From a virus (Duplodnaviria; Caudoviricetes), in IMG/VR virus record IMGVR_UViG_3300020045_004789, positions 1 through 27,653 of that record: DNA of 27,653 bases. One strand, written 5' to 3'. The notes under the pieces were generated by a model. That model saw nothing but the letters and a program-made list of their open reading frames with translations, had not been told where the DNA came from and made no database searches. Positions 5,709 through 21,073 of the stretch are shown here, piece after piece. A program made the translations under genes and the position numbers. Numbering within the stretch: position 1 is the stretch's first letter; each line of letters starts with the position of its first letter.

Positions 5709-8165
5709 TTATGCAACATAAGCATAAAGCCATACTGTTCCATTTGAATAGACGGTAGCTCCTGAGTAAGCAGCGTTCAAAACTTTTGTAGCAGCAGATG
5801 CACCACCACCAACCAGGTTTGTTCCGCCACCGTTGATAGTTATGTTATTTACTGCCGCCGTACCAGAGCCGTCTCTAATAACAAATGTTCTTCCTGCTAA
5901 GGCTGTAGCTGCAGGAAGCGTTACTTGTAAAACCCCCGCAGTTGTATCACAGTTAATCACATAGTCAGTTCCCAAAACTGTATAAGGAGTGTCAGCATTT
6001 GCTTTTGTTGTAATAGGAACAACCCATCCAGACGCAAATTTAATGCTTCCGGTGCCCGCTGTTAAATTAATTCTCGAGGCAGCCCCTCCAGCAGTAAAGT
6101 TCATAGCATCTGTTACGTTTTCCCCCGCACTTAACGTCATGGACCCGCTTGTGCAAGTAATAATTACATCTTTGGCTGCTGCTCCAGTTGCAACGATATT
6201 CATACCGCCACTGCTAGTAACATTGATGGAATCCGCGTTGGATTCGCCAGATGTCACATTCACTGCGCCAGCACTAGAAGACAATGTTAGATCTGCTGCC
6301 CCTGTTACAGTGAAATTTGAAGCAGTTGCAGAATCAATTGATACCGCTGCGGTAGTGTCTAGCGTAATACCACCAGTTCCCGCATCTACATCAATGCCGC
6401 CCGCTGCATTGCTAGCGTTTAACTTTATTGCATCAACCGCTCCTTCACCACCTTGTACAATGACGCTTCCGGCTGTTGAAAGAATGGTAATATCAAATGC
6501 CCCGGTGGCCGTTAAATTTGTTGCGCCAGCCGAATCCAATGACAAAACACCAGTAGAATCAACTGTAATACCACCAGTTCCTGCGTCAATGTCCATACCT
6601 CCAGCGGCATTACTTGCTATAATTCTTACTGCATCTGCGGCCGCTTGAGAAGAATCCAGATTCATTTGAAGAGCTACATCAACATCAAGACCACCCGCAG
6701 CCGCATCAATGTTAATTGCGTCTGTAGCCGCTTCGCCACCAGAAATAAGAATTGATCCAGCGGTTGAATTAACGGTAATATCAAATGCGCCTGTTGCAGT
6801 GAAGTTAGATGCTGCAGCGGCATCGAGAGAAATTGCTCCTGTTGTATCAAGAATAAATCCACTTGTGCCCGCATCCACATTGATGCCACCCGCTGCGCCA
6901 GATGCATTTATCGTGATAGCATTCACGTCCGATTCGGTTGCCTGGATATTGACACTAGAGCCTGTAGCAACGATGTCAATATCTTTGCCGGCTCCTGATC
7001 CAGTTGCCAGGATGTCTATACCGCCGGCCGTAGAAGTTAATGTGATAGAATCTGCGATGCTTTCTGTTGATTCGATCTTTACCGCTGATCCCGTCGCAGT
7101 GATTACTATGTCTTCGCCGGCTGCTGCTCCAGTAGATAATAGCTGAATCCCTCCAAGGGTAGATTCTAAATAAATGGCATCTCCAGCGCTTTCCGTAGAA
7201 ACCAGTCGAATCGAGGAGCCTGTCGCCGTAAGAGCAATATCCTCACCTCCTGTCGCTGAAGCTGCATTAATTTGAATACCGCCGACGCTCGAACTAATGA
7301 CGATAGAGTCCGCTACGTTCTCACCTGCTGTAATATTGACTGATCCAGCCGTACAAACAATGTCAATATCTTCCCCTGCTGCTCCTGCTGCGGTAACATC
7401 AATGCCCCCCGCAGACGCTATTAATTCGAGAGCATTAGCATGGTTTCTTGAAGATGTTAGGCTTAGAAGAAGGGCTACATCGACATCTAGGCCGCCTGCC
7501 GCCGCATCGATATTGATTGCATCCGTGGCCGCTTCGCCAGCGGTAATGTTGACAGCTCCCAGGGAACTCGATATGGTTGCATCAATTGCTGCGCCTGTAA
7601 CGCCGAAAGATGAAGCTGTATCAGAAGTGAGAATGTTTCCTGTTCCTACCCCGGTAGCCGCAAGATTTGTAAATGCACCTGCATTTGGTGCTGTACCGCC
7701 TATAGCAGGGGGGCTAGCTAAATTCGTTTTCAGCTTAAGAGGGGTAATTGCAGTATTGTCATTAGTACCCGTGTTAGTTTCTGCCTGTGTCGCCAGTTCA
7801 CCAATTCCCGATACAGTTTCAGACCAAGCAGGGGCACCAGCGATTGCGATCCCATCTACATAGTCTTTAATTTCTTTGACAGTTGGCACAAGAGTTAAGG
7901 AAGCAGCGTCCCCGAGTATAGTTGAGGATAATTGAACTATACCCGCCGCTGAAGTTGTAGCGTAGGCATTAGATCCAGCGTTCCATACTCCAGCAAATCC
8001 AGTAGTTGCATAAATTGTTTTTGCAGCAGAGCTCAGATCTTGCCATTGTGTTCCAGGTGGATATTGATCGTTTGTCGTTGGTGCGCGATTAGCTGAAATG
8101 AAAATTGGTCTAGAAGAGGTATTAGTAAGATTATCAAGAGGGTCTGAGGATACAAATCCTGTCAT
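5709..8165 (-). CDS. Main tail fibre protein (818 aa) with internal repeats
   Basis: T4 gp12/gp34-like motif SETVSGIGELATQAETNTGTNDNTAITPLKL; long run of ~22-23 aa Gly/Ala/Asp/Ile repeats; C-terminal TLPAA..GRTFVIRD..SNGTVW domain; SD GGAGA. Confidence 0.85.
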   Translation of the reverse strand: MTGFVSSDPLDNLTNTSSRPIFISANRAPTTNDQYPPGTQWQDLSSAAKTIYATTGFAGVWNAGSNAYATTSAAGIVQLSSTILGDAASLTLVPTVKEIKDYVDGIAIAGAPAWSETVSGIGELATQAETNTGTNDNTAITPLKLKTNLASPPAIGGTAPNAGAFTNLAATGVGTGNILTSDTASSFGVTGAAIDATISSSLGAVNITAGEAATDAINIDAAAGGLDVDVALLLSLTSSRNHANALELIASAGGIDVTAAGAAGEDIDIVCTAGSVNITAGENVADSIVISSSVGGIQINAASATGGEDIALTATGSSIRLVSTESAGDAIYLESTLGGIQLLSTGAAAGEDIVITATGSAVKIESTESIADSITLTSTAGGIDILATGSGAGKDIDIVATGSSVNIQATESDVNAITINASGAAGGINVDAGTSGFILDTTGAISLDAAAASNFTATGAFDITVNSTAGSILISGGEAATDAINIDAAAGGLDVDVALQMNLDSSQAAADAVRIIASNAAGGMDIDAGTGGITVDSTGVLSLDSAGATNLTATGAFDITILSTAGSVIVQGGEGAVDAIKLNASNAAGGIDVDAGTGGITLDTTAAVSIDSATASNFTVTGAADLTLSSSAGAVNVTSGESNADSINVTSSGGMNIVATGAAAKDVIITCTSGSMTLSAGENVTDAMNFTAGGAASRINLTAGTGSIKFASGWVVPITTKANADTPYTVLGTDYVINCDTTAGVLQVTLPAATALAGRTFVIRDGSGTAAVNNITINGGGTNLVGGGASAATKVLNAAYSGATVYSNGTVWLYAYVA

Positions 8166-8230
8166 ATAAATTCTCCATCGTACGATTGGTTAATTGTGAT
8201 CGCTAGCTAAGCGATTACGTTAATTTCTTC

Positions 8231-8290
8231 ATACGGTGGCGGGGCGTATTATACGGCCAATGACAGGACTGCGAATCCTTCTTTTCACGC
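8231..8290 (-). promoter_or_regulatory. Leader hairpins related to the capsid-leader motif
   Basis: GCGTGA-AAAGA-AGGA[TTCGCAG]TCCT and degenerate GCCGTA-TA-ATACG[CCCCGCCAC]CGTAT. Confidence 0.5.
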
Positions 8291-8298
8291 TGATTTAA

Positions 8299-8327
8299 AG
8301 CCTATCGATCTACATATTTATTAGCAA
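8299..8327 (-). promoter_or_regulatory. Putative late promoter for the fibre operon
   Basis: TTGCTA-N17-TAGGCT; 21/29 nt identical to 20020..20048. Confidence 0.6.
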
Positions 8328-8395
8328 AATAATTTTACACCCATAGACAAATGAGGTCATAAAATTTTATTTAGATTCTGAAAAAAGGAGTGGTC

Positions 8396-8404
8396 TGTTA
8401 ATCT
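8396..8404 (+). promoter_or_regulatory. Possible extended -10 promoter giving a leaderless mRNA
   Basis: TGnTAATCT ends 6 nt before ATG 8411; no SD at normal spacing. Confidence 0.35.
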
Positions 8405-8410
8405 TCTGTC

Positions 8411-8788
8411 ATGAGTATAGAAATAAAAGGAAAAGGTGCTGTTGGGATTGCAATATCGTACTATTCCCTACGTGGGATGGTGAGCATACCCCTTGAACCA
8501 TGTGATTACAATTTGATCTATGACAATGGACTTGTCTTATTTAGGGTTAAGGTAATCTCTTGTTCGTATAAAACGAAATATGGGATTTATTCCGCCTCTG
8601 TTAAAACCAGCGGAGGTAATCAACCTAAAACAGCAGTTAAAAAATTTAATTCCTGCTCATGCGATGGAGTTTTCATTGTCACATCCGATTTAGATATGTA
8701 TGAAATTCCATCCATTGAAATCAAATGCGGAAGACAGATTTCCCTGAATGTTTATGCTCATTACAAAGTAAATCTTGTTCCGGGTTAG
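8411..8788 (+). CDS. PD-(D/E)XK endonuclease-like protein (I-Ssp6803I / group I intron-associated family), probably catalytically degenerate
   Basis: KG..G.AI.YY...G.VSIPL...DYNLIYD...RVKVIS...SGGN...K.F...D..F...YEIP; canonical YDL and RVQVK read YNL and RVKVI. Confidence 0.65.
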   Translation: MSIEIKGKGAVGIAISYYSLRGMVSIPLEPCDYNLIYDNGLVLFRVKVISCSYKTKYGIYSASVKTSGGNQPKTAVKKFNSCSCDGVFIVTSDLDMYEIPSIEIKCGRQISLNVYAHYKVNLVPG

Positions 8789-8851
8789 CTCAGCGGTGGC
8801 AGCGGCGCCCTGTTAAGGCGTAGGTCGCAAGTTCGAATCTTGCACCCGGAG
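8779..8851 (+). tRNA. tRNA-Asn (anticodon GTT), CCA not encoded
   Basis: Acceptor TCCGGGT/ACCCGGA; anticodon arm GCGCC-CTGTTAA-GGCGT; T arm GCAAG-TTCGAAT-CTTGC; 3-bp D stem. Confidence 0.92.
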
Positions 8852-8879
8852 TTTTGTGGAAAATTTAAGGATTTTTAAT

Positions 8880-9191
8880 ATGCGTGATCCAAACACTTTC
8901 ACATTTTTTTATGTATTGATTCTATTAGTAATATTGATAGTTTTTCTTTTAGTAAGCAGAAAAAAATCAACTCCAAAAACTGATATTTCTGAATTCTCTG
9001 AGATCAAAGATTCATTAAAATATATCTCTAGTGAGATCCGTGAGATTAGAGAACGCCTAATGGCAATTGAAACTTCCTTGATCTTCATGAACATTCCTCA
9101 AGAAGAGGAAAAGCCCTGTTCTGCAAGAAGTGAAGCGGCAAAAAAAATGTGGAGAGCTAGAAAATCCAAAACACTCGAGAAGAGAGGATAG
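8880..9191 (+). CDS. Single-TM plus coiled-coil protein with basic tail
   Basis: ATG 8880 after AAGGA; FFYVLILLVILIVFLLV TM; EIREIRERLMAIETSL coiled coil. Confidence 0.65.
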   Translation: MRDPNTFTFFYVLILLVILIVFLLVSRKKSTPKTDISEFSEIKDSLKYISSEIREIRERLMAIETSLIFMNIPQEEEKPCSARSEAAKKMWRARKSKTLEKRG

Positions 9192-9195
9192 GTCC

Positions 9196-9393
9196 ATGAA
9201 GATAACGGCTAATAATTTTTTTATTTTTCCTGCCTTGATTTGGATTTCCTTTAATGTCATGTGGTTATATTTCAAGTATTCTGAAATGAATAAAAGATTA
9301 ATAAGAATCGAGAATGAGTTGATTTTAAATGGTATTATGCCTTCTGAATTGATCTCTAAGCCACTCTCTGATAAGGATATCCACCATTCTTAA
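9196..9393 (+). CDS. Single-TM plus short coiled-coil protein (65 aa)
   Basis: ATG 9196 after GAGGATAGG; TM followed by EMNKRLIRIENELIL, similar to the upstream ORF. Confidence 0.6.
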   Translation: MKITANNFFIFPALIWISFNVMWLYFKYSEMNKRLIRIENELILNGIMPSELISKPLSDKDIHHS

Positions 9394-9829
9394 TCAGGGT
9401 ATACATTGAAGCGCCAAGGGAAGGGACTTTACCTTTCCACCACTTACCCCATTTATTCTGACCATCTGTTCTAGCGGGGATTGCTCCTCGCTTGAATAGT
9501 TCGAAGATGACCCGGGGCACTCCTCCGTATTCGTAAACTGGGCCTTGACCTAAACCATCATTGCCTTGGAATTTAACGAGTAACTTTCCGCTGTCCTCAT
9601 CGAAATTGAATCCATAAACATTGCTACTTGGCATTTGGGCTGGAGGGACTTCTGGGACCTGAGGCGCTTCAATTGGGGTTTCTTCCTGAGCCATCTTAGC
9701 TTGTGCCAAAAATTTCAGACCCTCACGGATAAAATCTTCCACGACGCGTGCTTCTTCGTCTGTCAATTCATTAGCAGACGCTTGCACTAATTGCATATAC
9801 ATCTCCAGAAATTGAGCAAATTCGTCCAT
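9356..9829 (-). CDS. KTSC domain-containing protein
   Basis: SSNVYGFNFDEDSGKLLVKF...VYEYGGVP...SLGASMYTLIK..YPYQRV matches the KTSC pattern; acidic helical N-terminus. Confidence 0.8.
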   Translation of the reverse strand: MDEFAQFLEMYMQLVQASANELTDEEARVVEDFIREGLKFLAQAKMAQEETPIEAPQVPEVPPAQMPSSNVYGFNFDEDSGKLLVKFQGNDGLGQGPVYEYGGVPRVIFELFKRGAIPARTDGQNKWGKWWKGKVPSLGASMYTLIKNGGYPYQRVA

Positions 9830-10405
9830 TTATCTACCCTGATTTAGCCTTTGTAGCATTGCTAATCCTTCCTGAGTAAGTTGGATCAACCGACTCTTTT
9901 CATTAGCTTGACCATATTCAGCTTGGTGGGCTTCTTCTAATTGCTGACGCAAAGGCTTTTTTTTCTGAGGCGCCGATTGAGAAGGAGCTTGAGCATTAGG
10001 AATGCTTTGTGTCTGCATGGAAGGAGAGCCCTCTTCTGGCATAGCTTGAGAAACAGCTTGTGCTGCCACTCCAGGCATTCCCCCTGCTAAAGCTGCGCCT
10101 CCATATGCTGCGATACTTCTTGCCACTTTTCCGGGTATCTGCGCATTGCTTATCTGACTTTTAGCTGCCATTTCATCGGGACGTAAGGTTCCTTGTTGAG
10201 CACCTTTTTCCAATTGGCTTTCAAATGATTGAGAGGATTCATTTTCAAACCTATCCTTTAGATAATCCAAAGCATTATTTGCGTCATACCCATAAGCCGC
10301 AGCGGTAGTGAAATAGTTTTTGAACTTGGGATTTACCTTTTGGAGAAGCTTTACCCCCACAGATGCTGGTAGATATTTTATTGCTCCCATAATTGGCGCG
10401 ACCAT
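9830..10405 (-). CDS. Putative internal virion / ejection protein (191 aa)
   Basis: Gln/Ala-rich helical protein, position after the ejection-like genes. Confidence 0.5.
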   Translation of the reverse strand: MVAPIMGAIKYLPASVGVKLLQKVNPKFKNYFTTAAAYGYDANNALDYLKDRFENESSQSFESQLEKGAQQGTLRPDEMAAKSQISNAQIPGKVARSIAAYGGAALAGGMPGVAAQAVSQAMPEEGSPSMQTQSIPNAQAPSQSAPQKKKPLRQQLEEAHQAEYGQANEKSRLIQLTQEGLAMLQRLNQGR

Positions 10406-10411
10406 ATAACC

Positions 10412-11638
10412 TCATAAAGTATTGTATAAAATATCGCCTAACATCGAATTACTCGAAGGTTTTTGTCTCTGTCTCTGTTGTTTGGGTGTCAATGCAATTT
10501 TACCCTCATCTTCCAGCTCTGATACTCTCTCTAAGAATTGATTTACGTCATAGCGTTTATCCCTGAGCTTATGAGCAATTGAAAGAATGTTATCGTCGGG
10601 TTCAATATTTTCAATTATCGAATCTAGAGTTTTCTTGGGAAGAGGACGCACATCGACAAAGATGGTGCTTTTCAGAGGATCTAGAACCTTATTTATGTCT
10701 TTATTTTTTAAAGGATCTAAGACCGCAGCAGCTTGCATAGGAGTGATTCCTAACGCACTCGTCGCTATATCGTCAAATTGTTCTCCAAAGCCATATTTAT
10801 CAAATTGCTTCTTTTGCTCTCTCAGTTCACGCGTCTTCTCACTCGAAGGTTTTAACCAGTTGGAAATTGCCCCAGTAGTTTTTGTTTGGGTGACTGTTTT
10901 TCCCAACTCTTTTCCGATATCAGCTATTTCTTGTTGCGCAGCTTCAGGGGTTAAACCCTTCACTCCAACGAGATATTCTCCTTGATCCAATAAAGCATTT
11001 TTAATCTCGCCAGACACATCTTGGAATTGAGCAAAACCCCCTTTTTGGAGATCATTGGTTAAACGAGTTTCAAGTCCCGTTCTGAATGAGCCTAATTTCT
11101 CTCTCTGTGCCACTAAATTCTGCTTAAGTTCATTATAGGCTTGTGCTTCTGCATCCCTCTCGTTTAATGCAATTCCTGACTCAATATTTCTAATTGCCAA
11201 ATCCCGAACATCTTCCTTTGAAGGTTCTTGCTGAATAGATTGCTTGTAATTTTTAAGTTGTGAGGCTGATGCAAATCCTCCCTTACCTTGAGGTTCAATT
11301 GCAGATATTGGTTTTCCTTTCTCAGTAATATCAGCCTGTTTTGCTTGTGGGACTTCTTGGATAGGCTTACCGAAATTCTTTCTATAGGCTGCTGTCTGCT
11401 GAGATTCTCTAAGAACGGGAAGAAATGAGGAAACTTGTTCAGGAGTAAAACCAGACTTAATAAGTCCCGCAGTCTGTTGAATTGGACTTAAATTAGCGCC
11501 TTCTTTATTTAACTTTTCAAGGCCCGAAGATAGGCGATAACGTTCCATTTCTTTTGGAATTTGTTCAGAAAGACCCTTTCCAAATCCTCTTCCGATTCGT
11601 CCAGCGATATTCCCAGTTTCTTGTATAATTTGGACCAT
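10412..11638 (-). CDS. Putative DNA ejection protein (408 aa; position of P22 gp20)
   Basis: N-terminal GRIGRGFGKGL amphipathic Gly motif, helical body, synteny. Confidence 0.6.
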   Translation of the reverse strand: MVQIIQETGNIAGRIGRGFGKGLSEQIPKEMERYRLSSGLEKLNKEGANLSPIQQTAGLIKSGFTPEQVSSFLPVLRESQQTAAYRKNFGKPIQEVPQAKQADITEKGKPISAIEPQGKGGFASASQLKNYKQSIQQEPSKEDVRDLAIRNIESGIALNERDAEAQAYNELKQNLVAQREKLGSFRTGLETRLTNDLQKGGFAQFQDVSGEIKNALLDQGEYLVGVKGLTPEAAQQEIADIGKELGKTVTQTKTTGAISNWLKPSSEKTRELREQKKQFDKYGFGEQFDDIATSALGITPMQAAAVLDPLKNKDINKVLDPLKSTIFVDVRPLPKKTLDSIIENIEPDDNILSIAHKLRDKRYDVNQFLERVSELEDEGKIALTPKQQRQRQKPSSNSMLGDILYNTL

Positions 11639-11647
11639 AATTACTCC

Positions 11648-12265
11648 TTAGAAGGCTGGCCCCGCGGCACCAGAATCCATTATTCCTTTTGACTGACCAT
11701 ATGGAGAGGACTTTCCAAATTTAGACGATAACCAGTTTCCAGCCTGTCCACCTAATTTTCCTAACATTGGGCCTCCAAACATCGACAAAGCTTGACCAGC
11801 TAGAGGTGCTACTTGTTCTAAGAACCCTGGTTGGCCAGGATTGTAGATGTTTTCATTACGTTGCTGCAATCCACTCTCTCCGAGGCCCATCAATCCAGCA
11901 GCCCCTTGCTGCCTTAATTGCGCTCTAATCGCTCCAAGCCTTTCGGACAGATCTGTCCCAGCATTAACAGCAGCATTGCGAAATCCTGAGCTAGACAGAC
12001 CGCCAGAACCCATTCCTGCAAACTGTTCGGAAAGTCCAGGGATTATTTGCTCTCGAAATTGTCGCATCTCTGGGGCTGCCATCCCTTGAAAGGTGCTATT
12101 GTCATCGCCTAAAAGACTGCGATAGTAATCCGCCGCCTGACCAAACGCTCCACCCGCTCCTTGACCTTGCGCTGCCGCTAACTGTTGTTGATAGAGGGGT
12201 TGTTGCTCTTTACCTACGGTCGATAATTGCTTGTAACCGCCCTTTGTACCAGTGAGGAATCCCAT
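11648..12265 (-). CDS. Putative DNA ejection/pilot protein (205 aa; P22 gp7 / T7 gp14-like)
   Basis: Gly/Ala/Gln-rich with MGFLTG start and GLSSSG motif; follows the tail genes. Confidence 0.65.
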   Translation of the reverse strand: MGFLTGTKGGYKQLSTVGKEQQPLYQQQLAAAQGQGAGGAFGQAADYYRSLLGDDNSTFQGMAAPEMRQFREQIIPGLSEQFAGMGSGGLSSSGFRNAAVNAGTDLSERLGAIRAQLRQQGAAGLMGLGESGLQQRNENIYNPGQPGFLEQVAPLAGQALSMFGGPMLGKLGGQAGNWLSSKFGKSSPYGQSKGIMDSGAAGPAF

Positions 12266-12272
12266 AAGTCAC

Positions 12273-12791
12273 CTATTGTTCCTGTATATATTCGCATACC
12301 ACGAATACTCTTGTGTATGTGCTATAGTTTATAGCAGTTGTTATATTTATATTCGTGTTGTCCATTGTAATCTTAATGTTTTCATTTAGAGTCGGGGAGG
12401 AAAATGGAATAGGAATGGCTGCAAAGGCTTGAGGAGGGGCAACAATGGGAGGTTGCGTAGCTGCTGCCCATAAATCTATCAAAGTAAAATTTGCATCGCA
12501 GGTTATTCCATGTGCCACTGATTTTAATCCCGCATTTGGCAAAGCGCCAAAATCAATCACCTTTCTAAACACAGATCTATATTCTTGATTAGCATTGGCA
12601 CTTGGTATGAACTGTTGACCTGATAATAATTCTTCATCAAGAAGCCATCCGATAGTACGGATATTGACAGCATTGGTTATTTCCTTGAGATGCTCAATGA
12701 GAAACTGTCTTCCTTCTTCCCATGTTTCTGGTACAGTGTCGTAGACTGGTACATAGGCATCAAAGAATGTACTATCTTGTGGGGTTGTCAT
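12273..12791 (-). CDS. Tail-associated structural protein (172 aa)
   Basis: RKVIDFGALPNAGLKSVAHGI...IPIP...VVCEY motif of phage tail beta domains; TAATG coupling. Confidence 0.65.
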   Translation of the reverse strand: MTTPQDSTFFDAYVPVYDTVPETWEEGRQFLIEHLKEITNAVNIRTIGWLLDEELLSGQQFIPSANANQEYRSVFRKVIDFGALPNAGLKSVAHGITCDANFTLIDLWAAATQPPIVAPPQAFAAIPIPFSSPTLNENIKITMDNTNINITTAINYSTYTRVFVVCEYIQEQ

Positions 12792-13381
12792 TATTCAAGC
12801 CTAATCATTTGGAGTGTCCACCTAATTTCATTTAACGTCGTGGCTGGAAGGGTATTTTTGATTCTTAGCACGGCTCCTGCTACCACCCCTTCTATTCCTA
12901 CAATAGAAAGATAGTTTGTCACTAACAGAGTCGCTCCATTCCAAACAGCATAGACTTGTTGAAACCCATTTCCTGTTAAATTTGCAGCATAAAGTATTGC
13001 CATAGCTCTGGGCAATCCAGTAAAATCAAGAACATCCGCTGTCGCATTAGGAGCTAACGAAATGGCGGCGGCTTGAGACTGCCGAGTTGTAATTGGAGAG
13101 GGAACCACATTATTTGGTCCTCTTGAGTATTGAATTACTCCAACATTTGCTGAATCCTGCATTGCATAAAGTATTGGGTTAGCCCCTGTGGCTGGATGCG
13201 CAGATCCCACTATGAGAGGTGTAGTGATCTTATTATGGAATCCCAAATTTGCTGTGGAGACAGTAAAAGCATAATGATCGATCCCGTAAGTTGTATCTAA
13301 CTGTTGGAAATTTCCCAATAAGTCCACTTGTGAATCATCTAAATTATCTGTTGGCTGAGGAATATTTGCTTTATAAACCAT
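12791..13381 (-). CDS. Tail-associated structural protein (196 aa)
   Basis: IPQPTDNLDDSQVDLLGNFQQL..DH..G.H N-terminal motif; operon position. Confidence 0.65.
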   Translation of the reverse strand: MVYKANIPQPTDNLDDSQVDLLGNFQQLDTTYGIDHYAFTVSTANLGFHNKITTPLIVGSAHPATGANPILYAMQDSANVGVIQYSRGPNNVVPSPITTRQSQAAAISLAPNATADVLDFTGLPRAMAILYAANLTGNGFQQVYAVWNGATLLVTNYLSIVGIEGVVAGAVLRIKNTLPATTLNEIRWTLQMIRLE

Positions 13382-13383
13382 TT

Positions 13384-15936
13384 TTAAACTCCTGGGGGCA
13401 TTTGTCGGCCCGCTTTTCTAATATATAATATTTGAGCATCAATCTGAACATCGCTTTCTTGTTCGATTCCAACCAACTGAGCCTTGGAAAGTAGCCATTC
13501 TAATGTGATAAATGCCCCACGAACTGGACAAAAGACTCTATACCAATTCTTAGAGGTCGCAATTCCTCCTAGAGTATACGTAGGAACCACCGAATTAAAG
13601 AATGTATCAGGAGCCAAAGTATCAGGATTTTGATTCTGAGGAGCTATATTGATCGGCGAGTTATTGTTGTAGTCCAGGTAGGTATTCAATGAAATCGCTC
13701 CAGCTTCCGTAGCGCTCATCAAGATGTCGATGAATCCCAATTGAATATTCTGCCCCTCGTCAAGGAAGTTAAACTTTTTGCTTATGATACTGAATCCATC
13801 TCTAATGGCGATTTGCCCCCCTCCAATATAGGTATCTGGAGCATCTAATTGAGGGGAGCTAAATTGCTGTGTAGATGGATTGTATTTCCAAAGTTCAAAA
13901 TTGTCTTTATCCACCACAATAATAGCGAAGATATTTCTTCCCTGACTTGTCCAGCTTCCACCAACGGTATACGCGGTGTATCCGGTAGAATCAGTATTGT
14001 CTAATGTGAATGTATTGGCACCAGTAACGGTAATAGTATAAACATTACCATTAAGCTGAGTCATCCCACCTACACCTTCTATTTTTACGCTATCACCCGT
14101 TGTTAATCGATGTAATGTGCTGGTGATTTGGCAAGGATTTGCTTGAGTGGCGCCTGTAATCAATCCAGCTTGTGGATTATTCAAAGAAGAGGCGAATGGA
14201 GTGCCTATCGGAATTTCTTTGATGCTTATCACATAGCCGTCTTGCATATTGTGATCTATGCAAGTTATTACTGTAGGTGTTGTGGTATTGCCTGTGACGT
14301 TAGAAACAGATAAGCTCACATCAGCGGATACTTTCGGCTGAAGGTTGGAAGAGAGATATTCTACGTATCCTTCTTGGTTTCCTCCTACAATAGAGGGAAA
14401 TTGAGAAGGAATATCTAACCATGGAAAATCTGCTTCTGACCATGGGAAAGGGGATGTATTCCATTTTCTTTGAACTGGATTTTGAAATGTTCCCAGTGTC
14501 GTTAACGAATCTGTAAAGATAGCCCATGAATCATTTTCATAGTTGTACACAAGGCGCCTGTTTGGGAATACTACTGAAAATCCATCGCCTGGATTAAAAT
14601 GGAATGTCCAATATGCTAAACGCTGTTGGAAATCTCTTATTCCATGAACCCGATTGGTCCCATTATTCTCATTCTTAAATTCAAATACCAGGTCAGGTAT
14701 TTTTATGTCGATGCGCTCCGACTTAAAGCTGTCACATTGCACTACACCTTTATCGCCAATGCCTACCAAGGAAGTATCAAATTGGACTGCGCTAAATGTT
14801 CCTTCGGCACCAAGTTCACTATTGACCTTCTCGATTTGGAATGGAGCTATTGCACGTCCCGTGTATCTAAGCTGCCAGGTGCTTCGCTCGCAATAGATAA
14901 CTAGGTTGTCACGAACGAATCCTACAGAAATGATATTCTCAGAGGTGGGGATATCTAGAAAGCCTCCTTGGCCTCTAATATCATCTCTCCAAGCATTTGC
15001 ATTGATATCAGCAGGAAGAGGAAATAAAGCGCTCACAGTAGAAATAGGGTTTCCAATAGCACACCATCGGATTCGTTGTCTATATTGGATTGAGGTAGCT
15101 AGATTAGCCCCTTCATAGGTGTTGAAAACCACCATCCTCCCTCGGAAAGGAAGCATAGCCAGACATTGAGCAAGCACATTTCCTGCTGCATCGATAGTTG
15201 GTGCAAAATCTATCCACACACTTGAATCGGTATATCGAATAGGATCTCCACCAGTCCCAGAGAAATTTGTCGCCCAGAAAAGTTTGGAATTGTTAGGAGC
15301 TGGCGTTACCCAATAATTTGTAGTCCAGAAAAAATCAGAATCACTTCCTGTCCAGGTCGTTCCGACAATAAATTCTTGCCATCCAGAGGAAAACTTGTAG
15401 GCATAAACCTGATCGAAGGCGATCAACTGTTCATTATTGATATTGTTAAGTTCACGTGATCGTAGTCCCATCACAGGAAGAGCGGGGAAGTAATTAAAAT
15501 CTATAGTGACAGCAATCCCGGCAAGGTTGGGATTGGTATTGATCGTAAGAGCAGTAGTGGCATAGTTAATGGTTCCGGTACCTCCTGCCCCATTGGTAAG
15601 AGTTCCATTAGCAGGAGTTGACTCAGTAAATGTTTGTGCACCTACATATACTGTTACCGACCCCGGTTCTATGGTTGCGTTTGCTTCGAGTGATAAGATA
15701 GCAATTAAATTTCCTGAAAAATTCCCGGCGCCATCGGTATTCCCGAGTGCTTGTGCTGTCAAAACCCTGCGAAGTCTTCCTAATAGCTGGTAGCCTTGCT
15801 TGCGCTTGATTCTCTCTCTCCAAACATAGGCATTTTCAAGAGTTGGATAGGCATCGTTGGGTAATAGGAATTCCTCACGCGACTGGACTAGGCCGGTCTC
15901 ATTGCCAGTGATTTTTAGTGGAGTATATCCGCTCAT
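13384..15936 (-). CDS. Tail nozzle / tail tubular protein B-like (850 aa) with inserted E1-FCCH-like domains
   Basis: Beta-propeller-like blades (FRGRMVVFN, RIRWCAIGNP, VRDNLVIYCERSTWQL, YNYENDSW); follows the adaptor gene as in podoviruses. Confidence 0.75.
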   Translation of the reverse strand: MSGYTPLKITGNETGLVQSREEFLLPNDAYPTLENAYVWRERIKRKQGYQLLGRLRRVLTAQALGNTDGAGNFSGNLIAILSLEANATIEPGSVTVYVGAQTFTESTPANGTLTNGAGGTGTINYATTALTINTNPNLAGIAVTIDFNYFPALPVMGLRSRELNNINNEQLIAFDQVYAYKFSSGWQEFIVGTTWTGSDSDFFWTTNYWVTPAPNNSKLFWATNFSGTGGDPIRYTDSSVWIDFAPTIDAAGNVLAQCLAMLPFRGRMVVFNTYEGANLATSIQYRQRIRWCAIGNPISTVSALFPLPADINANAWRDDIRGQGGFLDIPTSENIISVGFVRDNLVIYCERSTWQLRYTGRAIAPFQIEKVNSELGAEGTFSAVQFDTSLVGIGDKGVVQCDSFKSERIDIKIPDLVFEFKNENNGTNRVHGIRDFQQRLAYWTFHFNPGDGFSVVFPNRRLVYNYENDSWAIFTDSLTTLGTFQNPVQRKWNTSPFPWSEADFPWLDIPSQFPSIVGGNQEGYVEYLSSNLQPKVSADVSLSVSNVTGNTTTPTVITCIDHNMQDGYVISIKEIPIGTPFASSLNNPQAGLITGATQANPCQITSTLHRLTTGDSVKIEGVGGMTQLNGNVYTITVTGANTFTLDNTDSTGYTAYTVGGSWTSQGRNIFAIIVVDKDNFELWKYNPSTQQFSSPQLDAPDTYIGGGQIAIRDGFSIISKKFNFLDEGQNIQLGFIDILMSATEAGAISLNTYLDYNNNSPINIAPQNQNPDTLAPDTFFNSVVPTYTLGGIATSKNWYRVFCPVRGAFITLEWLLSKAQLVGIEQESDVQIDAQILYIRKAGRQMPPGV

Positions 15937-16986
15937 CTAGTATCCTTGATTCCATCCAAAATTTGCACCATTTTGCTGAACAGTTCCAGAGTAAATAGTA
16001 GCATTCCTCTGACCGATCTCTTCGACACCTTGTCTTTCCAATACCATCGCTTCTTGTCTTTTAAATCCTTCCATTAGATTGGCCACCCCATCCATATCTT
16101 GTCGCTGTCTTAGGATCTCCATAGCCACTCCATAGGCTATATATTGGACCCATTGATTGAGTATGGGACTATCGGAAGTGAGCATGAACTGAACGGGAGT
16201 GAGGTATGTTTCTATCTCTACCTTATGGATAAATTTAGGAACTGGGCGCACTGTAAATTCATTGTTCCAAAACAGCAGAGATTGAGGTCTTCCGGTTTGA
16301 TACTGAGCCACTCTAAGCGTCATCTGAGTTCCAGATGCCGGGATATATCCTGCGGGAAAAGTAATTGAAAATTGACCAGTTACATAGTTAACGGTGCCTA
16401 TCGTTGTAACGATGTCTTGGCCTGGATTTGCTGTATTAAGATTTTTCATTCCTGGAGCTGGAGAAGTTTGCACGGGAACTGAAACGACAGGATTTGGAAC
16501 TTGCAGTTGCATATTTCCATTCCCATCGTCGGCCACAGAGATTGCATTTCCACCGACCGCTACACCACCCAAAGTCACCTGTTGACTTAGGAATGGCCCA
16601 GGCACAGTAAATGCAAATGTTGCGGTAACACCATCTCCAGTGATCGGTTTAAATTGAGTGGTATAACGCGTCCACATATTGAAGAATTGATTCCTGTCCT
16701 TGAAGAATGTCCCCTGGATTCCATCCACGTACATCGGTGCGCGTACCCCTTGGTTGAAATTCACATCTAGGGGGTATCTATCAATATTTGGACGCGTATA
16801 AAAAGTATAAACTGATCGCATCTGATCTAGTTTTATGGAATAGGGAAAATCTGAGCTGTAGAACATATTGACTTGCTGCTGAATGTCCACTGATCTTAGA
16901 GCAGATTCCGAAGAGGAGGCAGTATAACGCCTCACTAGTCTTTCTATCTGAGAATAGGTATTATCAGCAGGTACTACAACGCTCAT
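15937..16986 (-). CDS. Head-tail adaptor / tail tubular protein A-like (349 aa)
   Basis: Helical N- and C-termini; GRPQSLLFW...VRPVPKFIHKVEI and QYIAYGVAMEIL motifs; synteny. Confidence 0.7.
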   Translation of the reverse strand: MSVVVPADNTYSQIERLVRRYTASSSESALRSVDIQQQVNMFYSSDFPYSIKLDQMRSVYTFYTRPNIDRYPLDVNFNQGVRAPMYVDGIQGTFFKDRNQFFNMWTRYTTQFKPITGDGVTATFAFTVPGPFLSQQVTLGGVAVGGNAISVADDGNGNMQLQVPNPVVSVPVQTSPAPGMKNLNTANPGQDIVTTIGTVNYVTGQFSITFPAGYIPASGTQMTLRVAQYQTGRPQSLLFWNNEFTVRPVPKFIHKVEIETYLTPVQFMLTSDSPILNQWVQYIAYGVAMEILRQRQDMDGVANLMEGFKRQEAMVLERQGVEEIGQRNATIYSGTVQQNGANFGWNQGY

Positions 16987-16999
16987 ATTCCCTCAATTG

Positions 17000-17407
17000 T
17001 TAAAATCCTATAGCTACAACTCTGTGAATCGGATCTTCTAACTGATCTGTTTCTAAAGGCTGTCCGTTAGGACCAATTAATCCAGATCTTTTCATCTGTC
17101 TTTTCTTTGGATCGTTGATATCTTCGGCGAGGCCTCTAGGGATTTCATAAGTCTCCCCATGAAGAAATCTCCAAAACGTGATAGGCTGTCCTGCATATTT
17201 CATGTATGGACGCTCTAAGCGTTCATTCTTTCCATCTTTATGAAGGTATTGTACTTTCACGAGTTCTTCGTCCTTCTTCTTCAACGCTTCCATCTTGGGT
17301 TTGTTCTTTTCAGAAAAATGCTTAAAGCCATTGTCTGGAACTGAATTTCCCACAGTATTGATAAGTCCGTGTTGCAATCCGTTAGATGCTATTTTTGTTA
17401 AACTCAT
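17000..17407 (-). CDS. Hypothetical phage protein (135 aa)
   Basis: SD AAGGAG; GETYEIPRGLAEDIN motif; operon position. Confidence 0.7.
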   Translation of the reverse strand: MSLTKIASNGLQHGLINTVGNSVPDNGFKHFSEKNKPKMEALKKKDEELVKVQYLHKDGKNERLERPYMKYAGQPITFWRFLHGETYEIPRGLAEDINDPKKRQMKRSGLIGPNGQPLETDQLEDPIHRVVAIGF

Positions 17408-17421
17408 AATTTTTCTCCTTT

Positions 17422-17817
17422 TTAGTTTCCTACCGATCCATCTAAAGAGTGAAACGCAACAGTGGATATATTGTAAAGGTTTCTTGAACCTGCGGGAGCC
17501 AGAGAGGCAGGTTTTTGCTGCCTTATTCCTACTGGAATTACAAATGCGTTGAAGAAAGTGGTGTCGAGGGAGGTGGTAAAAGTCAGTAATAGGTTATCGA
17601 CAGCCAATATTTCGCAAGTCATCTGATCTGCTTGATACATCCCATATTCGGGTGGAATCGTAAGTTTGATTAATTGCCCAATTATGTAGGGAGAGGATGC
17701 AATGGGAACGGCATGAGTTATAACTGCATTGACAGCTTGTGTGATATTGGTAATTACAAGTGAGGGTGGGAAGACGGGAGATGGAGGTAGATACGTATTA
17801 GCAGACAATGTATTCAA
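17422..17817 (-). CDS. E1-FCCH-like domain virion protein (TTG start, possibly at 17808)
   Basis: ITNITQAVNAVIT...GQLIKL.IP..YGMYQ....CEILAV...LDTTFFNAF. Confidence 0.65.
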   Translation of the reverse strand: MNTLSANTYLPPSPVFPPSLVITNITQAVNAVITHAVPIASSPYIIGQLIKLTIPPEYGMYQADQMTCEILAVDNLLLTFTTSLDTTFFNAFVIPVGIRQQKPASLAPAGSRNLYNISTVAFHSLDGSVGN

Positions 17818-17855
17818 ATCTCCATTTTTGTGAACATCTCACCAAAAGATGTATA

Positions 17856-17878
17856 CAAAAGGGGGATTTCTCCCCCCT
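17856..17878 (-). terminator. Rho-independent terminator after the capsid/decoration genes
   Basis: GGGGGA-GAAA-TCCCCC followed by TTTTGT on the - strand. Confidence 0.8.
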
Positions 17879-17889
17879 AAATATTTAAT

Positions 17890-18930
17890 CTAAACTTCTA
17901 ATTTGTATGCCATCCAATTGATGATATCCAAACTAGCTCCTGCTGGGCTTGCAGCTCCACCACCAAGATACATATAAGGCGTAAACTGACCTGTATGGAA
18001 TGGTTGTTTGGAGAAGTCGTACCCAGTTTGCACCAAAGACACAGGATTAAAGCTAGTCTGAGCACCGGCTGGGGACAGAGTAGCAAATAATCTTGATGTT
18101 GGTGACAAGGCGGATGCTGGGAACGTAAATGTTGTAAATGCAGACGAATCTATGTCTACAGTCATGTTATAAGCTCCAATGCTTCCAGAAGCCGCCACAG
18201 CATTTACGGCTGTGATTGTTCCTGTAAGACCATCCATCTGTGTCATACTGAAAGATGAAGGGACAGAGAATCTGATCTTCATACCAACAACATAGAAAGC
18301 AGAAGGATCAACAGACGTACTAATTACCGCTGATGTCGCTTTTGAAATGTTTGTGATGTACAACATTTCTGGGTCAACTGCTGCAAATTTTGAGACTCGG
18401 CGAGTCACTCCACTTGTCGCTGCTGCCAAACCGTTTCCAGCTACGTTAGCTAAACCAAGAAGGGTATAGCCTGCGCCAGATACTGACGAAATTTGGAATA
18501 CCATTCCACCGATTGTCAAATCTCCAGTAGAACTGTAAATGCGTACATAATCACCATTGGAATAGGTATTAGTCTGAGTTACTACAGCAGGGTTTGCGGC
18601 TGTCATCCCAGTGATTAAATTAGCATTCGCAGCTTCAACATATGGACTTACTGTCACATATGTAAAACCATCTGATGCGGTTGCTGTTGCAAAAGTATCG
18701 ATTAAGATCGCGTTTGTTCCCGCTTTTCTCCATCTGATTCCATCATTTGCCGCAGAAGCGCCAGCACCAAATTTTGGTCCGAACCATTCTCCTGCCACAC
18801 AAACAGTACCAGCAGCAGCCATTTGTGTTACGTTTACCGTCTTGAAATAGTCGGCAGAGCTAGGAATAGGAATTTTAACGCCAACTCCAGTAGAGGTGAA
18901 TGAACCACCATCTAAAATTGTAAAAGCCAT
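17890..18930 (-). CDS. Putative capsid decoration/minor head protein with two FCCH-like domains (346 aa)
   Basis: Directly after the capsid gene, before the terminator; ITGMTAANPAVVT and ITNISKATSAVIS repeats; SD AAGGAG. Confidence 0.65.
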   Translation of the reverse strand: MAFTILDGGSFTSTGVGVKIPIPSSADYFKTVNVTQMAAAGTVCVAGEWFGPKFGAGASAANDGIRWRKAGTNAILIDTFATATASDGFTYVTVSPYVEAANANLITGMTAANPAVVTQTNTYSNGDYVRIYSSTGDLTIGGMVFQISSVSGAGYTLLGLANVAGNGLAAATSGVTRRVSKFAAVDPEMLYITNISKATSAVISTSVDPSAFYVVGMKIRFSVPSSFSMTQMDGLTGTITAVNAVAASGSIGAYNMTVDIDSSAFTTFTFPASALSPTSRLFATLSPAGAQTSFNPVSLVQTGYDFSKQPFHTGQFTPYMYLGGGAASPAGASLDIINWMAYKLEV

Positions 18931-18941
18931 ATTGTTTCTCC

Positions 18942-19898
18942 TTATAGTCTTGCGGTTACGTTCAAACCAGAGATCCAGTTTTGGTTTGTAATCGCACGGG
19001 CAATTGCAAACTTAGCATAGAGCTGGCTGTTTTGAGCCACGCTAGATACGACATACGGAGGTCTGTAGCCTAAGATTGCAGAATAGTTATTCTGGTCGAT
19101 CTTAGCAGCAGCTTCTAGGCCATACATCGGAATAGTGTAGACTGTTGCTCCATTGAGAGAAGCTCCAGGGATTTTAGCAGCTTTAGAAGACACGAAGAAT
19201 CTAAAGCGTGATACGGAGCAATATTCTTCAGGACGCAAACCTTCTTGATTAGGATAAGCATTTTTGAGAAGAACGCCCCCAACGTTTTGAAGGTCAGGTG
19301 TGATGTCGGTTGAAGCCAAAGCGATGAATGCATCTCTAGTTGGTGCTGTGCCGAACTTCAGGCCTGCATCGATCCCTTCGAGCATTGTACGCGCATCGTT
19401 ACCAAGCAAAATTCGCTCGATGTTGTTAATATCTTTACGGTCAATCTCACTTGGCTGATCGCCGTTTACTCCCCCTACCGCGTTTATATAACTAACTGAA
19501 CTAGAATAAAGATCTCTCATTAAAAGATCTTCCTTTTCTCGTAACCATTGTCCTAATAAAGCAGTAAACTTAGTTAGTACTTTATCATTCTCATACAAAG
19601 TAACTTGTTCGTTAATTACAACTGTCTTAGCGTAGATTTCCATCGTTGCATCGACATCAGTACGTACGACAACTTCGGGAGCTGGATCAATACCAGAACC
19701 GTCGAGTTGACCACCGTCGGTAGACAGACGCTCATATCGAGACATACGTGTTGTCTTACCGATATGCGCTTCTGCATAGTGAAGATCCGCACCAAAGGAG
19801 TGGATCAGGTTAAACATTGGGGTAGACAATAAGTCTTCGCTGAACTGTAAAGGAAGTTCAGGAGCCATATTGTTAATATTTGTGATGCCATTGGCCAT
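18942..19898 (-). CDS. Major capsid protein, N4-gp56-like (318 aa)
   Basis: GKTTRMSRYERL motif, size, position after the scaffold; ATG 19898 follows SD AGGTG by 6 nt (preferred over GTG 19907). Confidence 0.85.
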   Translation of the reverse strand: MANGITNINNMAPELPLQFSEDLLSTPMFNLIHSFGADLHYAEAHIGKTTRMSRYERLSTDGGQLDGSGIDPAPEVVVRTDVDATMEIYAKTVVINEQVTLYENDKVLTKFTALLGQWLREKEDLLMRDLYSSSVSYINAVGGVNGDQPSEIDRKDINNIERILLGNDARTMLEGIDAGLKFGTAPTRDAFIALASTDITPDLQNVGGVLLKNAYPNQEGLRPEEYCSVSRFRFFVSSKAAKIPGASLNGATVYTIPMYGLEAAAKIDQNNYSAILGYRPPYVVSSVAQNSQLYAKFAIARAITNQNWISGLNVTARL

Positions 19899-19934
19899 GA
19901 TTAACACCTATTTCAAGTGTTTAGTTCTAATTCT

Positions 19935-20012
19935 GTTGTTTGCGAGACAACTAAATCAGCTACACTTGCGAAGGTGTTAATCAGCAGGAGGCTAGCGACG
20001 CCGTATATCAGC
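19935..20012 (-). promoter_or_regulatory. Three tandem GCTGAT + hairpin (TCGCWA loop) units in the capsid leader
   Basis: Units 19986-20012, 19961-19985 and 19935-19960, with different but paired stems. Confidence 0.75.
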
Positions 20013-20019
20013 TTTTTTT

Positions 20020-20048
20020 AGCTTATCAACCTAAATATTTTATGACAA
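20020..20048 (-). promoter_or_regulatory. Putative late promoter for the capsid operon
   Basis: TTGTCA-N17-TAAGCT; predicted start site immediately before the first GCTGAT unit. Confidence 0.65.
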
Positions 20049-20053
20049 TAAGA

Positions 20054-20782
20054 CTATCTTCCACCGCTCTTCATCGTGCGTTGCATTCTAGCCCAGTTAT
20101 CTTGCCGTCTCTTCTCATCGAGCATCATCGGTGCTGAATCTGTCGTCTGAGTAGTGCCTCCTACCGCCATAGATTGAGGCTTATTAAAGTTCTTCTCTGC
20201 CGATTTTTGATCTTTCTTGGAGTTAGGATTAGGCACGAACCTCTTTACAGCCTTATAGATTGCTGCCCATTTGTCATATCCATCCGGTAAATGCTTATAA
20301 GGAGCCGCTACCTCCGGATAATGATACTCAAGATAGTCCAGATTCTCAGTGTTGCATACTTGATCGAAGTCGGAGAAATTAGCTACTAAGCGTTGAGGGA
20401 ACTCCTGCTGCTCTCTTAGACGCTTTTCCTCTTCATACTGACGATCGCGCTTAGCCATCATCTCTTCGACACGCTTATCAATCTTCTGCTCTTCGGTTAG
20501 CTCTTCAGCTTCTTGGTGTACATTCTGTTGAGAAGGCTTATTGAGCAACGATTCCATTGCAGCTTTAAGGGCGGCTATCTCTTCGGCTTTCTTAGCCGCT
20601 TCTCGTTCTGCAAGTTCTTTGGCTTTTCTATCTTGCTCTCGCGCTTCCCGGAACTTTTTCCAATTAATTTGCTCTGGAGTTTCTTGATTTGGTTCAACAC
20701 TCTTTTTTTCAGTGGCATTTAAATTATTCTCTTGCACGTTTTGTTTTACTTCTTCTACCTTAGTGTTAACAACTTCATCCAT
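20054..20782 (-). CDS. Capsid scaffolding protein (242 aa)
   Basis: Charged coiled coil (NWKKFREAREQDRK...), directly upstream of the capsid gene; SD AAGGAG. Confidence 0.75.
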   Translation of the reverse strand: MDEVVNTKVEEVKQNVQENNLNATEKKSVEPNQETPEQINWKKFREAREQDRKAKELAEREAAKKAEEIAALKAAMESLLNKPSQQNVHQEAEELTEEQKIDKRVEEMMAKRDRQYEEEKRLREQQEFPQRLVANFSDFDQVCNTENLDYLEYHYPEVAAPYKHLPDGYDKWAAIYKAVKRFVPNPNSKKDQKSAEKNFNKPQSMAVGGTTQTTDSAPMMLDEKRRQDNWARMQRTMKSGGR

Positions 20783-20794
20783 CTGTGACTCCTT

Positions 20795-21073
20795 ATGTCT
20801 GATTTAGATATTGCTGAAAAAATCAAAGATTCTCAAGAGAAATTGCAAGAAGATTTATCACATTACAGGAGAACATTGTATTATTTGGGAGCGAACGTTC
20901 CTATTCAAGTATTGTGTTTACCAAAAACTCTGGAGACATTACTGATTAACGACGGCTGTCTTCGTGTCTATGATCTTATCAATAGAGACTTTACTAAAAT
21001 CAAAGGCATCGGTAGTACCCGGCTCGCACTCCTTACATCCCGCCTTGACGAGTTTCTCTCTATTAGCGTTTAG
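20795..21073 (+). CDS. RNA polymerase alpha subunit C-terminal domain-like (HhH) protein
   Basis: PIQVLCLPKTLETLLINDGCLRVYDLINRDFTKIKGIGSTRLALL follows the alpha-CTD pattern I..L.L......L...G...V.DL....KI.G.G. Confidence 0.7.
   Translation: MSDLDIAEKIKDSQEKLQEDLSHYRRTLYYLGANVPIQVLCLPKTLETLLINDGCLRVYDLINRDFTKIKGIGSTRLALLTSRLDEFLSISV

Follow-up and report, generated by a model that had tools for sequence, protein, structure and literature searches.

To our knowledge, the timing and balance of head-protein synthesis in tailed phages that use host-type promoters are little understood beyond P22, and the RNA target of P22 scaffold autoregulation is poorly defined. In the Mu Com/mom and ANTAR systems, a protein binds the leader and releases a sequestered ribosome-binding site (RBS) or terminator, with tandem sites in the case of ANTAR. 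HK022 put and lambda nut are promoter-proximal structured RNAs on the phage transcript, with a terminator downstream, and the pseudoknot of the fluoride riboswitch joins a 5′ strand to a UCGCC-type segment. The P22 head operon is described in a preprint as being under post-transcriptional control by the scaffold N-terminus (bioRxiv 10.1101/2022.12.13.520362), and the GP20-b RNA (RF03003) is a predicted cis element upstream of phage GP20 genes (PMC10690425). Here, tandem arrays of small predicted pseudoknots (“units”) are described, which occupy the capsid and fiber leaders in a stretch of 27,653 nucleotides (nt) of caudoviricete DNA (IMG/VR record IMGVR_UViG_3300020045_004789, positions 1 to 27,653; “the window”). 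Three units lie in the capsid leader (20013-19935) and two in the fiber leader (8291-8231), as follows:

20020-20048, minus strand: sigma-70-type promoter of the capsid operon, TTGTCA, 17-nt AT-rich spacer, TAAGCT, with the predicted +1 at 20013 (sequence; positional consensus in 45 relatives)
19990-20013, minus strand: capsid leader unit 1, beginning at the predicted +1 (pseudoknot descriptor; aligned leaders)
19962-19986, minus strand: capsid leader unit 2, whose stem and loop double as the predicted anti-RBS strand (descriptor, fold, RBS-swap test, aligned leaders)
19935-19961, minus strand: capsid leader unit 3, inside the loop of the predicted OFF helix (descriptor, fold, covariance model)
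19896-19919, minus strand: capsid RBS region, Shine–Dalgarno (SD) sequence AGGU at 19909-19906 and ATG at 19898; unit 2 is the predicted partner of this region in the OFF state (sequence, fold, swap test)
18942-19898, minus strand: major capsid gene, 318 amino acids (aa) (phrog_1357 match, E 9e-11)
8299-8327, minus strand: sigma-70-type promoter of the fiber operon, TTGCTA, 17 nt, TAGGCT (sequence; promoter-plus-unit recurrence among records)
8265-8291, minus strand: fiber leader unit 1 (descriptor; records of relatives)
8231-8258, minus strand: fiber leader unit 2, a loop variant (U-to-C) whose loop and 3′ arm pair with the RBS region (unit read by eye; duplex computed)
8163-8187, minus strand: fiber RBS region, SD GGAG at 8176-8173 and ATG at 8165 (sequence; fiber-leader duplex test)
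5709-8165, minus strand: fiber-like structural gene, 818 aa (phrog_972 tail fiber, E 5e-10)

On comparative sequence evidence, the unit is a mini-pseudoknot of 22-29 nt, in which a 5′ strand is predicted to pair into the loop of the hairpin that follows. Its layout comprises three bases, an optional bulge, a G, a linker of 2-11 nt, a stem of 3-7 base pairs (bp), and a loop of 7-8 nt (Y-U-C-R-Y-N-A). A first-pass annotation of the window by a model had correctly placed repeat units directly behind both promoters. It had read each as a hairpin with GC(U)GA and UCGCA as the two arms, which is ruled out: UCGCA forms a loop that a separate stem, itself covarying, closes, and the pairing partner of this loop is the GC(U)G strand. 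Relatives were gathered with capsid queries, yielding 85 loci at 78-93% identity and then 80 more, partly overlapping; 20 near-whole relative records were read in halves and, together with the window, make up 21 records. A strict first descriptor missed the window's own units, and a relaxed version was used. It matched the window 14 times, four of these within the two leaders, and no shuffle null exists for the descriptor; in any one window a lone unit does not exceed chance, and it is conservation that carries the case.

Among 75 unique leaders (of 84), anchor and loop were complementary in 163 of 172 cases when complementarity was not required by the descriptor (GC with GC, 123; AC with GU, 35; GU with AC, 5; mismatches, 9). 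These leaders contained no unit in 6 cases, one in 8, two in 26, three in 33, and four in 2. Several of those scored as having none or one are, by eye, compensated variants, including a flipped G-C pair: the near-invariant G-C pair is flipped in variants L169, L178, and L198, and in one subclade unit 2 consists of an A-rich strand with a U-rich loop (both by eye). When 31 three-unit leaders were aligned with MAFFT, 92% of cells paired and two-sided changes were present at 12 of 14 pairs, while slid controls all dropped to 24-42%; because the rows were chosen with the descriptor, this covariation is partly circular. A single-unit covariance model returned 89 matches at E up to 5, nearly all of them in capsid leaders, and missed many fiber units. 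Capsid leaders L010, L056, L073, and L183 carry rewritten loops with matching 5′ strands and are thus natural compensatory mutants. Unit 3 has been lost from the capsid leader in the subclade comprising L061, L063, L068, L079, L080, L084, L169, L178, L184, L185, and L198; there, the 5′ strand of unit 2 mimics the SD, so that strand and SD compete for one loop.

The possibility that the arrays are a small-molecule or ion riboswitch, i.e., tandem mini-aptamers that would time virion synthesis to the state of the host, is considered very improbable. The expression platform is riboswitch-like and the topology of the 5′ half is similar to that of the pseudoknot in the fluoride riboswitch. Against this stand the very few invariant bases (9 invariant columns in alignment A2) and the absence, among 31 metagenome matches, of any copy before a bacterial metabolic gene. 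Moreover, the unit lacks the inserted second hairpin and the ion-binding junction of the fluoride riboswitch, whose model (RF01734) matched none of the arrays in five records and nothing in the window.

That both structural operons start with the same promoter type (TTGTCA-17-TAAGCT and TTGCTA-17-TAGGCT), as the first-pass annotation had it, was borne out, and the layout recurs in 45 relative capsid leaders. When these were aligned on unit 1, T was found at −7 in 38, A at −11 in 31, T at −12 in 32, and T at −35 in 38. The first base of unit 1 is A in 37 and G in seven, and unit 1 starts 6 nt past the −10 box in most of them. Unit 1 is therefore predicted to begin at the transcription start of the capsid message. 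A phage-specific late promoter was also considered and is ruled out by the plain sigma-70-type consensus in the relatives. A stock promoter scan of the window, overall at chance level (44 vs 41.5), omits both late promoter sites. A second sigma-70-like match (10/12) overlaps both fiber units (8248-8275, minus strand) and is not evident in relatives.

Both leaders fold better than shuffled sequences (capsid, z −4.30; fiber, z −3.52). In the minimum-energy nested fold of the window's capsid leader (−41.4 kcal/mol), unit 2 pairs with the RBS region (19981-19962 with 19919-19900), which leaves unit 3 in the loop. Coupling of a capsid unit to the RBS had already been proposed in the first reading of the window, and the helix turned out to be cognate-specific in relatives. 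For an RBS swap test, 148 leaders were reduced to 107 by dereplication and to 47 with exactly three units. Unit 2 paired with its own RBS at −14.6 kcal/mol, compared with −9.3 kcal/mol for foreign RBSs (0 of 5,000 permutations), while units 1 and 3 showed no cognate preference (4,624 and 2,406 of 5,000 permutations, respectively); these null results control in part for kinship. The fiber leader has a counterpart, which had been overlooked before: in 11 fiber leaders cognate pairing amounted to −12.2 vs −9.2 kcal/mol (1 of 5,000 permutations). Native leaders folded at −29.0 kcal/mol, those with swapped RBS at −21.8 kcal/mol. A translational switch is thus a well-supported prediction for the close clade, with the pseudoknot of unit 2 and the RBS helix predicted to be mutually exclusive. 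That the long RBS helix is the default state we only infer, because folding programs cannot score the pseudoknot.

A compensated fold that is present in two leaders and competes with the RBS helix implies an effector, and its repeated, shape-conserved sites suggest that this effector is a protein. No phage genes other than head genes are shared by every carrier, and the array alternates, from phage to phage, between scaffold start and capsid leader; this makes scaffold the leading candidate. The corresponding candidate ligand in the window is:

20054-20782, minus strand: scaffold-position gene, 242 aa, between portal and capsid, no family match, part of the clade core

The reading to which we tentatively give most weight, a little short of an even chance, is that the leader is OFF at rest and that a head-assembly protein, most probably scaffold in its free form, opens the capsid RBS by binding to the units. 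By default, the unit-2 helix would hide the RBS; a factor would stabilize the pseudoknot, presumably a protein that binds several units cooperatively; and if that protein is scaffold, occupation of the units would expose the RBS. As scaffold would be made from the upstream terminase-portal operon, which lies outside the lock, coat would be translated only while free scaffold is available, and the lock would keep a host-type promoter from yielding virion proteins early. Where the array lies at the start of the scaffold gene (L297, L300, L301, L319, and L359), the same binding could result in autoregulation of the P22 type. The RNA fold in the Mu Com/mom and ANTAR systems differs from the unit, and no Com or ANTAR domain was found among the open reading frames (ORFs) of the window.

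Promoter-plus-unit sites recur at two genes only, capsid and fiber, across the 20 records and the window. The fiber gene is preceded by promoter and units in 12 of 21 records (record G009 was not resolved), and in none of the five in which it follows the gene for a KTSC-domain protein within 144 nt. A tandem pattern gave 35 viral matches, 23 of which precede capsid genes; the rest have one stem or none. The former comprise 11 in the clade, eight at 30-39% capsid identity, and four with phrog_9953 or phrog_14242 capsids (for the family call, one of three similar proteins of 347-349 aa was scanned), so that the capsid genes behind the array belong to three PHROG families (1357, 9953, and 14242). 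Among the metagenome matches of this pattern, nine of 31 precede capsid genes and none of the others is an array. Of four matches to a bulge-free pattern, one (L297) comprises three in-frame units in codons 1-35 of a gene located between the portal and capsid genes. A further pattern had two matches, both of them in frame and close to the beginning of a scaffold-position gene (L300, with a pair of covarying units, and L301). A loose pattern added L319 and L359, each with a unit at the scaffold gene and a capsid of the window type (phrog_1357 for L359; by eye for L319). In G028, G033, and G034 the array directly follows the scaffold stop, and in G028 and G033 it is mid-operon without an evident promoter. 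No array was found in the distant capsid relatives examined; therefore, no laboratory phage model was found. It is possible, but doubtful, that a widespread module reads the level of free scaffold, represses at scaffold starts, and was rewired in this clade to an ON switch that licenses capsid and fiber translation. If true, it would constitute a general RNA homeostat for coat-to-scaffold stoichiometry in tailed phages.

Several observations weigh against control by scaffold. The fiber gene is no obvious scaffold client, and three records with inserts of 554-1,069 nt before the fiber gene have no units there. The clade's own scaffold gene does not have a unit at its 5′ end (0 of 21 records), where a P22-type control site would lie and where L297, L300, L301, L319, and L359 do have one, and none was found in P22 gene 8. 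The scaffolds of G028, G034, L297, L300, and L301 are not detectably homologous to that of the window (E 0.7-10), and a basic-helix motif sought in scaffolds has a background of 14 in 116. The loose pattern had stems in eight of 40 distinct matches, three of them at scaffold genes, and was otherwise mostly noise. As for the switch itself, the SD core was paired above 0.8 in 69 of 78 native leaders and also in 147 of 236 swapped ones (mean 0.96 vs 0.85); because the SD is often paired after swapping too, it is the length and energy of the helix that confer specificity. Nine distant leaders showed no cognate RBS pairing, the best unit being matched or beaten by at least nine of 107 foreign RBSs, and an ON switch is therefore not the universal role. 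RBS pairing is seen only in the clade that also carries the genes for an alpha-CTD-like and a KTSC protein, i.e., in a single lineage.

Persistence of the array where RBS pairing is not seen would be expected if the units were 5′-end stabilizers that act either without any ligand or together with a host factor: they would bury the 5′ end or block 5′-to-3′ decay, so that the capsid message outlives the scaffold message, and the RBS helix would be a clade-specific add-on, e.g., a folding timer. The position of unit 1 at the predicted +1, the two to four redundant copies, and the preservation of shape while the sequence flips are in line with this, as are the arrays behind the scaffold stop or within the reading frame of scaffold genes, positions from which a block to decay would spare only the capsid message. 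We nevertheless regard it as unlikely, since a plain 5′ hairpin would suffice for this purpose, a pseudoknot of 3-4 bp is weak, and the retention, in two different leaders, of a cognate RBS helix at the expense of unit 2 is left unexplained.

The clade limit shared by RBS pairing and the alpha-CTD-like gene bears on the effector proposed in the first-pass annotation, which had listed five kinds of candidate trans factor, the scaffold and the following among them:

20795-21073, plus strand: alpha-CTD-fold (HhH) protein, 92 aa, the only antisense gene of the clade core (structure match, profile, records)
9356-9829, minus strand: KTSC-domain protein, clade core (20 of 20 records), absent from distant array-bearing phages (domain match, records)
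8411-8788, plus strand: PD-(D/E)XK_5-like ORF, a variable insert and not part of the system (domain match; 0 of 20 relatives)

The alpha-CTD-like fold itself was corroborated: alpha subunits take the first four places among the structural matches (best Z 9.9, root-mean-square deviation 1.7, 61 residues aligned), followed by RAD51 N-domains (Z 8.3). In Pfam, the window protein did not match PF03118; three of 63 relatives did, at E 0.027-0.1. The family profile has conserved basic and aromatic residues and no Arg or Asn at the aligned helix-1 positions, which in E. coli we take to be the UP-element-binding R265 and N268. If, in this clade, the RBS were opened by this protein (or by KTSC) upon binding to the array, the alpha-CTD-like protein would be a suitable activator insofar as all 20 records and 99 of 106 loci have its gene, which is the only core gene on the opposite strand and hence expressed outside the lock. 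Yet co-occurrence within one clade is a single event common to all core genes, and it fails at depth. In three genomes (G026, G029, and G031; 99-100% complete) the array is intact and both genes are absent, while portal, 201-aa gene, scaffold, and capsid are shared with the clade. A search over 13 records for both proteins matched only in two clade controls, unfiltered profile searches of seven distant records found no alpha-CTD-like, KTSC, 74-aa, or 78-aa ORF, and loci with variant units showed no evident change in the protein (by eye). An alpha-CTD or KTSC activator is accordingly deemed decidedly improbable. The degenerate nuclease ORF and a small basic protein (58 aa) had been named as further parts; both are ruled out by their distribution (0 of 20 relatives and seven of 20 records, respectively), and a multi-protein system is not supported. 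The alpha-CTD-like gene is arranged head-to-head with the scaffold gene (12-bp gap, 20782-20795), a short gap that recurs in most of 15 records listed, and overlaps the 3′ end of the 201-aa gene (20939-21073). Transcription of the alpha-CTD-like gene must begin within the scaffold gene and cross the scaffold RBS in the antisense direction.

An analogy to nut/put-type antitermination had also been drawn, in connection with a hairpin farther down the capsid operon:

17890-18930, minus strand: second structural gene of the capsid operon, 346 aa (weak phrog_584 match; core, 20 of 20 records)
17856-17878, minus strand: intrinsic-terminator-like hairpin (17878-17860) after the first two genes of the capsid operon

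The hairpin is indeed there, with a similar one in 15 of 21 records. An array that modifies RNA polymerase to read through it would sit where expected, just downstream of the promoter (not so in G028 and G033), and the units come and go with the promoter; a host target would, in addition, explain the spread over unrelated phages. We consider such a signal improbable all the same: the cognate RBS helix, not a feature of put or nut, is unaccounted for, arrays also occur mid-operon with no evident promoter (G028 and G033), a leaky terminator behind the most abundant structural genes needs no antitermination, and no boxA/boxB or put sequence was recognized here. Translational control of the scaffold type appears to fit the gene associations better than nut/put antitermination.

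Known RNA families did not account for the arrays. None of the Rfam 15 families matched them, and the GP20-a model (RF02991) did not reach its cut-off of 47.2 bits. The nearest cousin is GP20-b, the consensus of which has the same GGCGUA/AGCGUA words as the 5′ strand of the unit. Its model had no match in the window; the best score, 16 bits in G039, was below the 36.2-bit cut-off. GP20, which we take to be a scaffold family, is what follows GP20-b, whereas the arrays of the window precede capsid and fiber genes and its scaffold has no Pfam match. In Rfam, GP20-b is a single hairpin with the word in its loop, and no pseudoknot array or ON switch is modeled. A loop-first (permuted) copy of the unit, with a UCGCC-type word before a GGCGUA-type word, lies against the SD of scaffold genes at L297:1455-1485, L319:1490-1535 (minus strand), L300:2085-2125 (minus strand), and L301:820-860; the copy before the L297 scaffold gene is weakly matched by the GP20-b model (16 bits, E 0.016; cut-off 36.2). 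A partial match to HEARO RNA (32.6 bits, E 0.0025) lies just upstream of a distant array (L218:1299-1428, minus strand). Autoregulation by P22 gp8 is negative and acts on the scaffold's own gene, whereas the switch predicted here is positive and acts on capsid and fiber genes.

In PMC10690425, four candidate RNAs predicted from IMG/VR (DNAVirus_3698, _865, _5613, and _7287) are placed within 25 nt of N4-type, podovirus, or P22-type capsid genes; the likeness to the unit is one of position before capsid genes. Neither a tandem unit nor a switch of this kind is mentioned in the main text of that paper (“tandem” occurs 0 times). No description of the unit was found in the literature, where the candidate alignments of PMC10690425 and the supplement of PMC5737381, which were not covered, may hold one. 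The array is a real RNA module of phage head operons, apparently not modeled so far. It offers a computable pair of ON and OFF folds and a short list of candidate ligands, both open to reporter fusions in a laboratory host; a function for the orphan GP20-b motif may follow from it, and as a marker it could help to locate scaffold and capsid genes in phages that lack annotation.

The window represents the structural region of a podovirus-type phage (∼73% complete). On the minus strand lie the genes for terminase, P22-like portal, the scaffold-position protein, the phrog_1357 capsid, tail and ejection proteins, and the KTSC protein, followed by a short antisense insert that contains a tRNA gene and by the fiber genes. 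No match among GenBank phages was obtained with the capsid or with two arrays, and a scan for loci with a capsid of 39% identity as query returned none. Relatives L081-L085 sit in five bins labeled Paceibacterota, Legionellaceae, Nitrososphaeraceae, and Nitrospiraceae; as these bins are taxonomically inconsistent and the relatives probably misbinned phage contigs, no host was inferred. The tRNA of the antisense insert lies beside the nuclease ORF:

8779-8851, plus strand: tRNA-Asn(GTT), its 5′ end overlapped by the PD-(D/E)XK_5-like ORF

Among 20 relative records, six have a single tRNA apiece; besides one Asn, four amino-acid types are represented. The fiber leader contains an extra 10-bp hairpin (8195-8219), terminator-like on the plus strand and, by eye, not seen in the fiber leaders of relatives; it may stop the transcript of the antisense insert. 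The 850-aa (13384-15936) and 346-aa (17890-18930) proteins have a common module matching phrog_584, and E1_FCCH (PF16190) in the case of the former. The fiber protein (5709-8165) consists in part of repeats of ∼43 residues, visible in the DNA as a spacing of 129 nt.

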